Shown: piece by piece, positions 1-4,794 of the stretch
Layout: each line of letters opens with the position of its first letter
Position numbering within the stretch: position 1 is the stretch's first letter
Source of the DNA: a virus
Lineage: Duplodnaviria > Heunggongvirae > Uroviricota > Caudoviricetes
DNA: 4,794 nucleotides
Direction: 5' to 3' (one strand)
IMG/VR virus record: IMGVR_UViG_2671180609_000016
Location: 1 to 4,794 of that record
Notes under the pieces: generated by a model
What the model was told of the DNA's origin: nothing
Database searches by the model: none
What the model saw: the letters and a program-made list of their open reading frames with translations, nothing else
Position numbers and translations under genes: made by a program

Positions 1-2640
1 GTCCTTCTGCACGCGCTGTATCTGCTGAATGGTGGCGCTCTGGTCTTCCAGCGTTTTACTGACCGTCTGTGTGATTTCATTGCGGGTTTCTGTGATGGTG
101 GTCTGCATTTCCGCCATCTCGTCCTTCAGCTGACTGTTGTCAATCTCTGCCCACAGCGCCTCTGCCAGATGCGTTTTTCCTATCTTTTCCCGGAAAAGTT
201 CCAGATAGCCCGCAGCATCATTGCTCGCCCGTCCACTGGCTTCCACAAACGCAGATTTACCCACCAGGTTGACGCTGCGCACATAAAACCAGAAATCCTT
301 TCCGGGCTTAATGTGCGGACCGGAGACACTCCACTGACTGCCGGTCCCCAGATAACGGGCAGAGGTTTCCACCTGTGCGGCGTCTGCAATTTTTGCCTCC
401 GAAAACCAGAACTCAAACTGCACCGTCGGGTCATAAATGGTCAGTTTCGGGACTGCCGTTATCTGAAAATACCCCGGCGTCAGTTCAACACCGGCAGGCG
501 CTGCCGGTGCGTTAATCCGGAACGTGGTGGTGGCGGGTTCGCCCTGCTGGCCATAGCTGTTAATCGCCCTGACCGTCAGGGTGTATTCCCCGAGAGGCAG
601 GCCACTGAAACGGTGCTCCGTATCGGCAGTGATGGCGGTGGTCACCAGACGGCTGTCTTCTCCGCTTCCGCTGGTCAGGCGCAGACTGAAGCGCACACCC
701 TTCACCACCCGCGGCGTGTCCCATTTCGCCTGTGCCAGATACTGACCGTCAGCCGCGCTCACCTCCACTGTCAGGTGCTGCACTGCCGGTGGAATAACGC
801 TGTTCAGGGTGCCTGACTGCGGCTCAAAGCTGGCCCCGTTATCCACGATGGCTTCTTTTTCCGGTACGTGCTGCACCGCCGTGATGGCAAAGGTGCCGTC
901 CGTGTTTTCCCGGACGGAGACACAGCGGAACAGGCGACGACGCAGTGACGGCAGGGAGAGTCCCCATACACCGTATGTCTCCACGCCATCAGGCAGGGTG
1001 CTGACCTGTATCCGGTCCGGCGCGGGGTGTGCAGTGATGGCCACGCTCACCGGCTTACCGCTGCCGTTAATCAGGTTCACCGTGGCGGCACCGGTCTCCG
1101 GCAGGGTCACCTCACGGTCCAGTGTCAGGGTGCGGCTGGCGGCATCGATGGACAGGATACGTCCGCCGGTCATGGTCCCGGCATAGTCGTTATCACAGAT
1201 TTCAATAATGTCACCGGGTGTGTGACGCAGCCCCTGTGACCCGAGCGTGAAATCCACCGTCTGCGTTTCCAGCAGTCCGGTCTTTATCACCCACAGCCCG
1301 GCACGGTGGGCCTGACCGCGACTGGTGCAGCCGAACGCATCCATCTTCAGCAGGTTGCGTCCGTAGCGCAGTATGGCTTCCGGGTCTTCCACCAGTTCCG
1401 TGGAGGTCTGCCAGCCGTTCTGCGGGTCGGTGTAATTCACCTCCACCGCCGTGTGGCGGTCCTTCAGGGCGCTGAAGCTGTAGCGAAACCCCACGCCGTT
1501 ATCATCCACCACCACATCACTGCTGGTGTACGGCCACACCACATCTGACGGACGGTCCTGCACAAACGTCAGCGTCTGCCCGTTCCATACCGGCATACAG
1601 CGCATCGCCGAGCAGAAATCACTGAGAACGTCCCACGCCTTACGCTGTTGTGACAGGTACGCATTGAAAGTCATCCGCGGCTCTGTGCCCCCGAAACCAT
1701 CCGGGACCGTCTGGTCGCAGTACTGCGCAATGGCATACAGCGCCCACTTGTCCACATCCGCCGCCCCCAGGCGTTTTCCCATGCCGTAGCGCGGGTGAGT
1801 CAGCATGTCCCACAGGCACCAGGCCGGGTTGTTGCTGTATGCCGGTTTCAGGCTGCCGTCCCAGATACCACTGTACGTGCGTTTTTCCGGGTCATAGTTT
1901 GACGGTACCTGGATGATGCGACCGCGGATATGGTAGTTCACCGTCATCTGCTGACCGCCAAACTGCTCCGCATCCACCTGCAGCCCCACAATCGCCGTGT
2001 TCGGGTAGCACTGTTTCACATCGATGATTTCGGTGTATGACGACCAGAGCGTCTTATTCTGCAGCTGGTCCGTGGTGCTGTCCGCCGTCTCCCTGACCAT
2101 CCGGATGTTAAAGGGGCGGGGAGGCAGATTATCCAGAATCACCGACGCCAGAAACTGCGAGGTGGTCTTGCCGTTAATGGTGACATCCTTTTCCGTCATC
2201 CATTTACCACCACGCTCAAGCTGAATCAGCAGGCGGACAGACGTCGGGTTACGGTCACCCTTTGAGGTGGTCTCCACCAGTGACTGCACCCCGAAGGTGA
2301 CCCGCAGGCGGTCAATGTTCGCGGACGTAATGGTGCGCGTCACCGGCTTTGCCTTCGTCACTTCCACGCCCAGTCCGGTTTCAGCTCCGGAGGACTCAAA
2401 GCCTTCAGGTGGTGTCTGCTCCTGCTCCCCGGCGCGCCAGACCGCTGTCACACCATGTATCACAGGATTACCGTCCGTGTCCGTCAGCGGGGTTTTGTTC
2501 ACCAGGATACTCTGCAGCCCCTTCACCGGACCTTCAATCGGCCCTTCACCAATCGCATCAATCACGCTCATCATCTGCGTGGACTTAAGATTGTCCTTTG
2601 CCTCAACCGGCGTGTGCGCCCTGCCGCCACCTTTGCCCAT
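1..2640 (-). CDS. J: Host specificity protein J (central tail fibre / tail tip protein), N-terminal 880 codons; the 3' end runs off the window at position 1
   Basis: ATG at 2640..2638 on the minus strand. Hand translation of 2401..2640 gives [80 protein letters not shown], closely matching the lambda gpJ N-terminus as I recall it. I also hand-translated 2161..2400 and 1..540 in the same frame with no stop (e.g. [50 protein letters not shown]). The track lists no stop-terminated minus-strand ORF in this frame, consistent with one open frame reaching the window edge. SD-like AAGGGTGAG sits 4-12 nt upstream of the ATG. Confidence 0.95.
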
Positions 2641-2643
2641 TGT

Positions 2644-2652
2644 CTCACCCTT
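2644..2652 (-). promoter_or_regulatory. Ribosome-binding site for J (AAGGGTGAG, about 7 nt before the ATG)
   Basis: Minus-strand sequence reads aaagggtgagaca-ATG; purine-rich GGGTGA-type Shine-Dalgarno at appropriate spacing. Confidence 0.5.
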
Positions 2653-2671
2653 TACTGTGATAACTGTTACG

Positions 2672-2704
2672 CACAAAAACAACAGGCATCCCGGAGGATG
2701 CCTG
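2672..2704 (-). terminator. Intrinsic-terminator-like hairpin plus U-tract in the same orientation as the tail genes, ending about 30 nt upstream of the J start codon
   Basis: Minus-strand reading: CAGGCATCC-TCCG-GGATGCCTG (9-bp perfect stem, 4-nt loop; plus-strand 2683..2704) followed directly by TTGTTTTTGTG (plus-strand 2672..2682). Confidence 0.5.
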
Positions 2705-2838
2705 TATCATGACTGAATAAAAATTCTGAATATCTTCACATTTTCTGTACGCCCCCGTGGCAGATATCATTCCCGGGCGTTACAGTTTTTTCGGGCCAAT
2801 AAAAACAAAACTCCCTGTGGTTAATCTTCATTTTCTGT

Positions 2839-2876
2839 TCCCGCAGCCTTCGGTCACTGCGGGATTTTTTCGCTTT
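2839..2876 (+). terminator. Intrinsic-terminator-like hairpin plus T-tract in plus-strand orientation, abutting the stop codon of I
   Basis: Plus strand: tCCCGCAG-ccttcggtca-CTGCGGGa (8-bp stem 2839..2846 / 2857..2864, 10-nt loop) followed by TTTTTTcgcTTTT (2865..2877). On the minus strand the hairpin is followed by acagaaaatg, so it reads as unidirectional. Confidence 0.45.
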
Positions 2877-3556
2877 TATGCCTGCCGCCCGATAACCACC
2901 ACCTTCCCGTCACCGCCTTCATCACGGGTGCTGATGTCCTGGGAGATTCGCCGGGAGCCAACCAGCATTTCACCGTAAGGCACCGGCATCGGGTTCCCCT
3001 GGGCAATCATGTTATCCAGTGAGGAAAAATACGTGTTCTGTCTGCCGTTATCCGTTGCGCGGTAATCCGGTGTTTTTGCCTTCGGGGCAAGCATCTGAGC
3101 CACACCACCCAGTATCATGCTGGCCCCCAGTGAAAACAGCATCGTGGTGGCAGAAAAACCACCGGCTGCCAGGGCTGAACCCCATAACGCCATTGATGCC
3201 CCGGCAGTGAAGAACGACCCCACGATGGCCGCCGCCCCCAGCACAATCTGCAGTCCGCCCTTTCCGGCTCCGGCCAGTCGCGGCACAATATGGATGACCG
3301 CCCCCTCACCCAGAGGTTCGTGAAGACGGGCGTACACCGCCTCCGGTGCCGTGTCCTCACCGCGAATACGTATCTGGTACCAGCCTTCGTTCATCTGACG
3401 GCGGAATCCCGGCACCTGTAACGACAGCGCCCGGATGGCCTCCGCTGCCGTGTTCACATACAGGCTGAGGCGGCGGCCAAATCGTTGCAAATCCCCGTGA
3501 AGGCAGATGCGTGCCAGTGGCGGTGACGCCAGACAGAATGCGTTCGTCGTTGCCAT
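2876..3556 (-). CDS. I: Tail tip assembly protein I (226 aa): ubiquitin-like N-terminal domain ending in Gly-Gly, then a Gly/Ala-rich hydrophobic segment
   Basis: Track ORF 2876..3556 (-). N-terminus MATTNAFCLASPPLARICLHGDLQRFGRR matches lambda gpI (MAATHTLPLASPGMARICLYGDLQRFGRR as I recall it). Stop TAA at 2878..2876 verified by hand. Start ATG at 3556..3554; SD-like GGGAGAGG at 3575..3568. Confidence 0.93.
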   Translation of the reverse strand: MATTNAFCLASPPLARICLHGDLQRFGRRLSLYVNTAAEAIRALSLQVPGFRRQMNEGWYQIRIRGEDTAPEAVYARLHEPLGEGAVIHIVPRLAGAGKGGLQIVLGAAAIVGSFFTAGASMALWGSALAAGGFSATTMLFSLGASMILGGVAQMLAPKAKTPDYRATDNGRQNTYFSSLDNMIAQGNPMPVPYGEMLVGSRRISQDISTRDEGGDGKVVVIGRQA

Positions 3557-4197
3557 TTTTCGGAATACCTCTCCCGTTTACTCAGTTGTTCAGGCAGATG
3601 GTGAAGCAGTTCACCGTTGCCGCAGTATATGGCGGCATGATTGGCCACCGATGCGCCAAAGCAGCACAGCAGGATATCGCCAGGCTGTGCGGAAGGCAGG
3701 GAAATCCTGTAAAAACCAGTCGCCTCCATATTGTCCAGGTACAGGTTCTGACCATTGCGCCACCAGTCATCCTCACGCTCAAAATCCGGCATATCAGTCC
3801 CCGCCAGATGGTATGCATCCCGGAACAGCGTGTAACAGTCCGTCACCCCGTGTTCAAAGCGCCGTCCGGTCAGGTGCGGAACGCAGCGGAATTTGTGAAT
3901 GTCACCCTGGCTGACCAGCCACCAGGGCAGTGCGCTTTTTATCTGCAGCCGCCGGTCAGCCTCGCTCAGCCAGGGCAGACCACCGGGATGACTGTGAACC
4001 AGCGCCACAATCTCCCCCGACATCTCTGCCCGCAGCCAGTCTTCCGGTGCGATACGAAAATACGCCTCCGGCTCTGCGGAAATATTCACACACGGCAGAT
4101 ACCGCTCCCCCTCCGGCGTGCTTATCACGAAGCCGCACGACTCCGCAGGCGCACACCGCCGGGCATGCGCCAGAATCGCTGATTCAGTCTGTGTCAT
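3454..4197 (-). CDS. K: Tail tip assembly protein K (247 aa): N-terminal MPN/JAMM (JAB) metallopeptidase-like domain plus C-terminal NlpC/P60 cysteine-peptidase-like domain
   Basis: Track ORF 3454..4458 (-) in the same frame. I place the start at ATG 4197..4195 (MTQTESAILAHARRCAPAESCGFV...), because the 87 codons upstream are Arg-rich, overlap L in another frame and do not resemble K. JAMM-type motif H-S-H-x7-S-x2-D (HSHPGGLPWLSEAD; His codon verified at 3996..3994). NlpC/P60-type catalytic Cys in GVTDCYTLF (codon 3837..3835) with downstream NHAAIY / LLHH histidines. Stop TGA at 3456..3454 verified. Confidence 0.9.
   Translation of the reverse strand: MTQTESAILAHARRCAPAESCGFVISTPEGERYLPCVNISAEPEAYFRIAPEDWLRAEMSGEIVALVHSHPGGLPWLSEADRRLQIKSALPWWLVSQGDIHKFRCVPHLTGRRFEHGVTDCYTLFRDAYHLAGTDMPDFEREDDWWRNGQNLYLDNMEATGFYRISLPSAQPGDILLCCFGASVANHAAIYCGNGELLHHLPEQLSKRERYSEKWQRRTHSVWRHRHWHASAFTGICNDLAAASACM
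3568..3575 (-). promoter_or_regulatory. Ribosome-binding site for I, embedded in the 3' end of K
   Basis: GGGAGAGG about 11 nt upstream of the I ATG; this stretch also encodes ...KRERYSEKW... of K. Confidence 0.4.
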
Positions 4198-4207
4198 AAA
4201 CCGGGAT

Positions 4208-4794
4208 TTACTGCGAAAGTTTATTGATGGAAAGGAAACCGCCAAAATTAGCCACCATGCCGCGCATCTCACACCCGCGCATGCACTTGCTGCATCTGTC
4301 CTTACGGATATCCGTGGTGGGGTTGTCGAACTCATCCGCCACCGCAGGACCGTTATACCCGCATTCATCTCCCCGGTAATCCCACATACAGGTGTTCGCC
4401 AGCATGATGCGACCAGGAAACAGCGCCCCGTCCGTCTCCGTCGGTGTTGCCAGCACAAACGAGGCCGTCATGGCCGTCAGCTCTGACATCTGCTCCACCA
4501 CCCACCGGTCAGTCAGCTCCTGCTCCGGGTCGGCCTCCGGATTGCCTGCCACAAAGTTCACCGCATCCAGAAAACGCGCATACACCCGGCGGCGGACCAC
4601 CGTGGCACCCACCAGGCTCTGCAAATCCTCCGCCATCCCGGTGACAAGACCGAACAGATTGGACACCGTCAGCGACGGGCGGGCACTGCTGCCCTTTCCG
4701 TTCATCTCAAAGCCGCTGCCCTCAATCGGGTACGCCTGATATTCACGCCCCTGCCAGGTCACCGGCACCCCTTTTTCATTCAGCTCATTGCAGA
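4208..4794 (-). CDS. L: Tail tip protein L, C-terminal about 195 codons; the 5' end runs off the window at 4794
   Basis: Track ORF 4208..4768 (-); its 'start' is an internal GTG (Val in ...CNELNEKGVPVTWQGREY...) and the frame stays open to the window edge. Matches lambda gpL (...FFCNEQNEKGEPVTWQGRQYQPYPIQGSGF... as I recall it). C-terminal Cys cluster C-x22-C-x2-C-x3-C. Stop TAA at 4210..4208 verified; K ATG follows 10 nt downstream on the minus strand. Confidence 0.93.
   Translation of the reverse strand, partial: CNELNEKGVPVTWQGREYQAYPIEGSGFEMNGKGSSARPSLTVSNLFGLVTGMAEDLQSLVGATVVRRRVYARFLDAVNFVAGNPEADPEQELTDRWVVEQMSELTAMTASFVLATPTETDGALFPGRIMLANTCMWDYRGDECGYNGPAVADEFDNPTTDIRKDRCSKCMRGCEMRGMVANFGGFLSINKLSQ

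Follow-up and report, generated by a model that had tools for sequence, protein, structure and literature searches.

A probable PasB-family small RNA gene, antisense to the tail operon, in the I-J spacer of a lambdoid phage

Short Hfq-dependent RNAs have been described from prophages of two Escherichia coli pathotypes. PasB, one of five 'pathogenicity-associated' small RNAs (sRNAs) recovered by ligating and sequencing interacting RNAs (RIL-seq) in enteropathogenic E. coli (EPEC) O127:H6 E2348/69, is an 83-nt RNA encoded on the minus strand of prophage PP6 (NC_011601, 1466343->1466261) between E2348C_1436 and E2348C_1437. It was validated by northern blotting, is Hfq-dependent, held interaction rank 15 with 37 interactions, and was higher in non-activating conditions (Pearl Mizrahi et al. 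2021, PMC8550237). In enterohaemorrhagic E. coli (EHEC) O157:H7 Sakai, EcOnc22, EcOnc23 and EcOnc24 are homologous peaks of Hfq crosslinking and analysis of cDNA (CRAC) on the plus strand of Sp15, Sp14 and Sp11, respectively (PMC4104026, Table S2), with a northern band of ~85 nt that is destabilised in a delta-hfq strain (Tree et al. 2014, PMC4104026). Here we analyse a stretch of 4,794 nt from a tailed virus (the window; positions 1 to 4,794 of IMG/VR record IMGVR_UViG_2671180609_000016), in which the spacer between the tail genes I and J carries a unit whose homology to PasB and EcOnc22-24 is secure. We consider it likely that this spacer holds a moron-like insertion of ~150 nt (~2719-2871), namely an independently transcribed gene for an Hfq-dependent base-pairing sRNA of the PasB / EcOnc22-24 family.

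Coordinates are window positions, with the strand as given taken as plus; the long open reading frames (ORFs), corresponding to L, K, I and J, all lie on minus (Table 1). The window is overall ~95% identical to tail modules of phages converting their hosts to Shiga toxin (Stx) 1a and 2a production, and the first 65 residues of its J are 71% identical to lambda J (tblastn). Its I-J spacer (2641-2875) measures 235 nt, against 60 nt in lambda (15445-15504). The G+C content is 44.3% across the spacer and 38.8% in its core (2705-2838), against 59.4% in the J part and 60.6% in I. A preliminary description of this DNA had remarked on an enlarged gap (235 nt against ~60 in lambda) and on an AT-rich core of ~40% G+C between GC-rich genes, and both impressions agree with these measurements. 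The Shine-Dalgarno sequence of J, GGGUGAG, lies at ~2644-2650. At the other end of the spacer, the stop codon TAA of I occupies 2876-2878 (plus-strand numbering), and the 3' end of the sRNA lies 5 nt away on the other strand.

The description had also found no protein-coding explanation for the spacer. Two minus-strand ORFs of 31 and 41 residues and a GTG-started plus-strand ORF of 73 residues do appear in the ORF list, and the 31-residue ORF starts at an ATG within a conserved box. However, this ATG reads ACG in many alleles, that of the 41-residue ORF sits in a TATCAT box that is TATAAT in other alleles, and all frames are disrupted between alleles by indels of 1, 2 and 5 nt. None of the small ORFs is kept among the alleles, and we find it hardly credible that the spacer encodes a small protein.

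Table 1. Genes and sequence features of the I-J region, in window coordinates.
Feature	Position	Strand	Basis or remarks
Tail assembly gene I	2876..3556	-	ORF list; 66% identity to lambda I (tblastn)
Host-specificity/tail-tip gene J, 5' part	1..2640	-	Sequence; ATG 2640-2638
PasB-family small RNA gene	2793..2870	+	Homology to PasB, covariance model; antisense to tail operon
A-rich (A-R-N)x4 stretch AAUAAAAACAAA, candidate Hfq distal-face site	2798..2809	+	Repeats in alleles
Conserved unpaired box, candidate seed	2821..2831	+	Near-invariant columns; unpaired in folds of all alleles
sRNA Rho-independent terminator, also predicted 3' Hfq-binding module	2839..2870	+	Stem 2839-2848/2852-2864, U6 2865-2870
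Near-invariant A/T-rich upstream block AAAAATTCTGAATATCTTCACATTTTC	2719..2745	+	13-spacer alignment; kept despite wholly different left flank
Candidate -10 box no. 1, TATCAT	2765..2770	+	TATAAT in most alleles; predicted start near G2777
Candidate -10 box no. 2, TACAGT then T-run	2781..2786	+	TAnnnT in every allele; predicted start G2793
Terminator-like sense-strand hairpin upstream of J	2672..2705	-	Stem 2682-2691/2696-2705 (10 bp), loop CGGA

For comparison, phage records, IMG/VR contigs and the genomes of Sakai and E2348/69 supplied 25 distinct sRNA bodies and 37 distinct promoter-plus-sRNA units. The first pattern applied to the viral contigs was loose and returned 120 stretches, mostly by chance, which were filtered by demanding the terminator. 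Conservation was read from an alignment of 13 spacers together with the 25-37 unit variants. A covariance model built from 15 alleles, with window-type alleles excluded, matched the window at 2791-2871 on the plus strand with 56.8 bits (E 2e-11), the next best match reaching 13 bits; the same model found no match in lambda or in distant I-J loci. The predicted sRNA measures 78 nt from G2793, or ~94 nt if transcription starts near 2777, and the window copy is identical to that in phage YYZ-2008. Its body shares 76% identity with PasB and 73% with EcOnc22, and no word longer than 17 nt is common to them. A BLAST search at word size 28, as applied to bacterial genomes in a 2026 survey, would miss the window allele.

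The preliminary description had proposed Rfam and folding searches. At E <= 1, Rfam offered no family for the sRNA unit in the window and related loci, and both hairpins of the spacer proved to fold significantly (z -3.9 and -3.4), at coordinates that the description had placed to within a few bases. A known group considered for the unit was that of the anti-sRNAs AgvB and AsxR (RF02702, RF02703), which are likewise short Hfq-dependent sRNAs, carried as cargo by lambdoid prophages of EHEC, and which combine a variable 5' region with a conserved 3' region. These, as well as other sRNAs of the PR' moron site, lie downstream of PR' rather than in the tail module and are unrelated in sequence to the window sRNA. 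The identity was rejected on position, and the Rfam search gave no RF02702 or RF02703 match in the window; the same search recovered AgvB in Sakai Sp10, with 96.5 bits in locus L028.

The correspondence with PasB extends to the surrounding genes. In the RefSeq annotation of E2348/69, its neighbours are tail assembly protein I (ending at 1466255) and gpJ (starting at 1466496), both on plus, so PasB itself sits in an I-J spacer, antisense and 5 nt from the I stop codon. The window aligns to this spacer at 88%. The two loci are alike in slot, antisense strand, terminator stem, pre-terminator box and A-rich 5' tract, as well as in the upstream block and the double -10 layout, and, over 23 nt, the terminator region of the window is complementary to the northern probe for PasB apart from 6 differences (4 substitutions, 2 insertions). 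They differ in the 5' third and the seed flanks (UUAAUCUUCAUUUU in the window against UUGAUCUUCAUUUG in PasB), in the first -10 box (TATCAT rather than TATAAT), and in copy number, the window allele being multi-copy with a median of 3 per genome and PasB proper typically single-copy.

The Sakai RNAs occupy the same position. In NC_002695.2, the places of EcOnc22, EcOnc23 and EcOnc24 are the I-J spacers of Sp15, Sp14 and Sp11, where I and J are encoded on minus. The coordinates of Table S2 predate this genome version; the Rfam match to AgvB is found 128-146 nt further right than the AgvB peak as published. The two versions differ in total length by 128 nt, and moving the EcOnc22 peak by +128 nt brings it onto the sRNA body; uncorrected, the peaks of EcOnc22-24 would appear over the left hairpin and not over the sRNA. 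The offset of ~+128 nt holds at least from 1.94 Mb onwards. Independently of any shift, each of the three spacers holds, as GTTAATCTTCATCGTTCTCTCCC, the perfect complement of 23 contiguous nucleotides of the EcOnc northern probe (GGGAGAGAACGATGAAGATTAACTGATGAGTTA); this segment spans the conserved box and the 5' arm of the terminator. EcOnc22-24 thus share with the window the I-J slot, the strand, the architecture and the probe box; the 5' part of EcOnc22 is shorter. From sequence and position together, we infer that PasB and EcOnc22-24 are one family at one tail-gene junction. Neither the table of the 2021 paper nor the text of the 2026 preprint, as searched, makes this link.

A near-identical PasB allele was also observed in Sakai Sp12, within an I-J spacer of 341 nt (locus L152, 13560-13639; NC_002695.2 ~2217648-2217727), where no EcOnc peak was called. 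The lack of a peak fits the low level of PasB in growth that activates the type III secretion system (T3SS), so absence from the 2014 list does not exclude a gene.

All four major alleles carry 3-5 ARN repeats at the equivalent place near the 5' end, and the ARN motif has been reported as Hfq-bound (PMC4104026). Further downstream, the box at 2821-2831 reads UUAAUCUUC(A/G)U and is common to all alleles; it lies in the stretch that the EcOnc22/23/24 northern probe covers, and the same region has been put forward as the PasB seed (Zhu et al. 2026, bioRxiv 10.64898/2026.05.13.724894). A U-rich single-stranded stretch precedes the terminator hairpin, which ends in a tail of U6-8 across alleles. 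This right hairpin (2839-2864) comprises 8 bp plus a 2-bp inner stem and folds with -14.0 kcal/mol (z -3.4), 1 of 200 shuffles being as good. Its loop is longer than the 8 nt allowed by the pattern scanner, so the scan did not detect it and gave in its place a smaller hairpin that overlaps it (2859-2873). All 15 of 15 alleles have the stem CCCGCAG/CUGCGGG unchanged, and the loop varies in both sequence and length. By analogy with its homologues, for which the literature documents an RNA of ~83-85 nt, Hfq dependence and many mRNA partners, the window unit may be expected to yield such an RNA as well.

The spacer also contains two significant terminator-like hairpins of opposite polarity, which would suit a pure transcriptional insulator with no functional RNA, and the preliminary description had offered an 'insulating insert' as one of its alternatives. 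We regard this as very improbable. Homologous units give discrete Hfq-bound RNAs in two pathotypes, the single-stranded motifs between promoter and terminator are strongly conserved, and lambda gets by with a hairpin of the left type only; an insulating function is neither required nor backed by these data. The description's other suggestion, a small self-contained non-coding transcription unit inserted in a short junction, has fared well, as the unit is homologous to validated Hfq-dependent sRNAs at the same junction.

Transcription of the sRNA would depend on a promoter in the AT-rich core. On its left, the mobile sRNA module is delimited by the conserved block at 2719-2745, probably a UP-element, a -35 region or a regulator site; in all alleles, a variable stretch of ~12 nt separates this block from two -10-like boxes, whose offset is fixed at 16 nt in 37/37 unit variants. 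For box 1, the best -35 element in the window is TTTTCT (2741-2746) at an 18-nt spacing, a match of 8/12, compared with the 11/12 of the TTCACA-16-TATAAT found in most alleles. Box 2, combined with GTGGCA at 18 nt, also scores 8/12, the best value of any allele for this box. It predicts a start at G2793 that is equivalent, within 1 nt, to the published 5' end of PasB, and box 2 with its T-run is retained in Sakai Sp10, where sodC replaces all sequence upstream. Either of the two boxes may be the one in use. RNA sequencing of E2348/69 gave baseMean values of 4.8 for I, 15 for J and 482-1082 for pasB, which argues that PasB is transcribed on its own in the lysogen.

Other transcriptional signals were considered and set aside. 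A resemblance to a sigma-54 promoter (TGGCAG-N5-ATTCC) was rejected, as the GC at -12 is absent and the motif is not conserved. A promoter or an sRNA on the minus strand, ending at the left hairpin, was dropped when no conserved promoter was found for it. The preliminary description had envisaged core transcripts terminating in both directions; of these, the plus-direction terminator was borne out by the homologous sRNAs, and we found no evidence for a minus-direction transcript from the core. As a separate observation, the covariance model gave a weak second match on the conserved upstream block (2707-2790, plus strand, 13.3 bits, E 0.066). The block bears a loose likeness to the sRNA's 5' part (CAUGACUGAAUAAAAAUUC…AUCUUCA), and in the window allele a hairpin (ACGCCC/GGGCGU) and a T-run come after it. 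It may be what is left of an ancient tandem duplication, or the likeness may be a coincidence of base composition.

Alignment of I-J junctions, a comparison that the description had suggested, identifies the unit as an insertion relative to lambda and to six distant relatives (Enterobacter, Rahnella and Pantoea being among their sources), whose I-J spacers measure ~50-65 nt and lack it. Spacer lengths were taken from a scan of GTDB genomes with the I protein, which gave 12 loci, several of them E. coli contamination of unrelated assemblies. The unit therefore has the attributes of a moron, being absent from the junction of relatives, deviant in G+C content and equipped with its own terminator and a predicted promoter. 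It has been found with unrelated left flanks and in tandem arrays.

The left hairpin has a different history. Lambda's 60-nt spacer, which has no sRNA unit, contains a sense-strand hairpin with a U-tract (ACCGCC-UGCG-GGCGGUUUUGUCAUUU) ahead of the J Shine-Dalgarno sequence (z -2.8), in the same position as the left hairpin of the window and unrelated to it in sequence. In other loci, the sRNA module, from its AAAA(A/T)TTCTGAA block onwards, is joined to quite different left flanks, one of which is a bidirectional terminator (the 342-nt spacer of PPompW/569R3 type). Given the positional analogue in lambda and the exchangeable flanks, the left hairpin belongs to the junction and not to the inserted module. 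The earlier view that two hairpins bracket a single element must accordingly be revised, since only the right one, the terminator, is part of the sRNA unit. The left hairpin itself folds with -19.3 kcal/mol (z -3.9; 0/200 shuffles as good) and is terminator-like by the scan, and its minus-strand tail GUUGUUUUUGUG (2672-2681) is U-rich and interrupted; the hairpin may act as a terminator or as a stabiliser at the junction. We also observed that, in a predicted fold of the sense RNA (2641-2780, minus strand), the U-tract of this hairpin can pair with an upstream A-rich segment, ACAGAAAA, to form a longer alternative structure (-46.7 kcal/mol, z -3.6) that could affect termination or the translation of J.

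Taken together, these features suggest how the unit may operate. In the lysogen, where the late tail operon would be silent, a sigma-70-type promoter in the AT-rich core would fire rightwards on the plus strand from one of the candidate -10 boxes (2765-2770 or 2781-2786), and the transcript would stop at the intrinsic terminator (2839-2870), 5 nt before the I stop codon. Hfq would contact the (ARN)n tract near the 5' end and, towards the 3' end, the hairpin, its U-tail and the U-rich nucleotides that precede it. As the seed, the conserved unpaired box UUAAUCUUCAU and the variable sequence on either side would pair in trans with mRNAs, both host and accessory. The hairpin on the left (2672-2705, minus) would halt stray sense transcripts in the lysogen; in lytic growth, Q-modified polymerase would pass it.

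Several results weigh against this account. A consensus promoter scan of 2400-3100 called no promoter, the best match in the window being only 8/12, and the two candidate starts lie 16 nt apart; the 83 nt of PasB fits box 2, and the ~85 nt of EcOnc22 falls between the predictions. The window's U-tail has 6 U, compared with 7-8 in most alleles. Because the terminator stem never varies, it has no covariation support, and the structural argument rests on the pattern of conserved stem and variable loop and on the fold z-scores. The RNA as a whole folds no more stably than its shuffles (z -0.56), as would be expected of a mostly unstructured sRNA body. Across 10 alleles, 97% of cells in the left hairpin are paired, with one compensatory change from C-G to U-A plus intermediates, although this covariation stays within shuffle controls. 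Finally, the literature gives no targets or physiological role for the PasB family.

In every locus examined, the sRNA gene runs against the tail operon and ends right beside the I stop codon. This constancy raises the alternative that the RNA acts mainly in cis, or on sister prophages, through its full complementarity to the intercistronic I-J part of the late mRNA. Such action might take the form of RNase III cleavage between I and J, lowered J expression, titration of the sRNA by late mRNA on induction, or a head-on damping of leaky tail transcription. Since a genome can hold up to 8 identical copies, the RNA of one prophage would match the late mRNAs of the others. On the other hand, the sRNA stays clear of the J ribosome-binding site, ~140 nt away, and PasB of EPEC was recovered on Hfq with 37 partner RNAs. 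No chimeras with I or J appeared in the available part of the RIL-seq table, which is a weak test given that the late operon was essentially silent there. We therefore consider a predominantly cis-acting role quite improbable, and favour an sRNA that pairs in trans.

The family is widespread. By megablast of the sRNA bodies against 5,426 complete E. coli genomes, the window-type allele occurs in 464 genomes at 1,551 places (median 3 and maximum 8 per genome), the PasB type in 956 genomes at 999 places (median 1), the EcOnc22 type in 542 genomes at 1,245 places (median 2), and a type designated 'v0' in 800 genomes at 985 places (median 1). None of these places is annotated, so that the four major alleles alone account for about 4,800 unannotated copies. 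The whole window spacer was found, again unannotated, in 706 of the genomes, with a median of 3 places per genome, and additionally in 150 phage records, mostly of Stx-converting phages. The window allele is multi-copy in EHEC of serogroups O157, O26 and O121 and is unannotated in RefSeq. Sakai holds at least 5 family members: three of EcOnc22 type, one of PasB type in Sp12, and one after sodC in Sp10.

These counts also bear on whether the window copy is a decaying relic of the family, poorly expressed or silent and carried along by recombination among EHEC prophages. Its promoter elements are weaker than those of other alleles (TATCAT against TATAAT, TTTTCT against TTCACA) and escaped the promoter scan, and its U-tail is shorter. 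Because prophage tail modules spread by recombination, identity across serotypes is no proof of selection. We also looked for expression of the window allele in the Sakai EcOnc list and found none, with Sp3, Sp4, Sp8 and Sp9 outside that survey; EcOnc54 lies at another site, Sp6 has no J, and Sp12 has a PasB-type allele and no called peak. Yet the allele is complete from end to end, the terminator, the seed box and the ARN tract included; its copies are numerous, about half of them at >=99% identity, and its box 2 with GTGGCA matches better than that of any other allele. Decay is thus unlikely.

Beyond the window, the I-J junction is a general cargo slot, which may be empty or filled by 1-3 sRNA units, by sodC plus an sRNA, or by a lipoprotein ORF. 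Lambdoid morons such as sodC of Sakai Sp10 resemble the window unit in being autonomous, of lower G+C content and placed between late genes, here in the same slot and also antisense. They differ in cargo, which is a protein gene in the case of sodC and a non-coding RNA of ~80 nt in the window.

Individual loci illustrate this variety. In Sakai Sp10 (L150, 18485-19335; NC_002695.2 1963484-1964334), the I-J spacer of 851 nt contains the Cu/Zn superoxide dismutase gene sodC (ECs_1989), in antisense, followed by a PasB-family body (81 bits with our model); neither the upstream block nor the TATAAT box is left there, the sodC module standing in their place. After the I stop codon, L088 (4418-4965, minus; IMGVR_UViG_2698536657_000013) has three sRNA-like units in tandem, as do L035 and three further loci. 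Two of the units are PasB-like, and the third ('U3') combines the same promoter layout with another body (…CCUCCUUAAGGUGACUAUUCGU…) and a stem CUCCCGU/ACGGGAG. This second sRNA type was present in 5 of the fetched loci, always beside a PasB-like unit, and had no Rfam match. In prophages of Pseudocitrobacter faecalis and Enterobacter wuhouensis (L006, 2136-2681; L008, 2075-2668), the slot measures ~630 nt and holds another type of cargo, a sense ORF of ~180-197 residues with a signal peptide and a lipobox-like cysteine. Sakai Sp6 (L149; NC_002695.2 1576553-1578208) carries EcOnc54 within an insertion of a regulator and an antirepressor after the minor tail gene L; its I is truncated, and the T3SS effector genes espX7 and espN stand in place of J. 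Finally, three short contigs labelled as Streptomyces flavalbus, Parendozoicomonas haliclonae and a Clostridiales metagenome-assembled genome (L003, L005 and L011) carry an I with 92-100% identity to that of this prophage, the first two together with the sRNA unit, and most likely reflect E. coli contamination of those assemblies.

On its own, the finding in the window amounts to a published prophage sRNA locus found again from raw sequence. What the comparison adds is, first, that PasB (EPEC, 2021) and EcOnc22-24 (EHEC, 2014) can be united, a link not stated in the parts of the literature that were searched. Second, the family includes strongly diverged alleles that are absent from Rfam and missed by high-stringency BLAST; judged by its sequence, the window allele is one such diverged, multi-copy member of a published but un-curated sRNA family. 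Given these diverged multi-copy alleles in EHEC, the extent of the family is probably underestimated where publications describe EHEC and EPEC as largely lacking PasB. A third point is that the I-J junction recurs as a cargo slot for sRNA arrays, sodC or a lipoprotein gene. A more far-reaching reading would combine these points into a junction dedicated to diversifying sRNAs, a PasB family several times larger than reported, and, since all copies lie opposite the late I-J mRNA, cross-talk or interference on induction between prophages resident in the same cell; as a whole, we hold this to be rather improbable and offer it as speculation. The natural sequel to these results would be an Rfam family and proper annotation.

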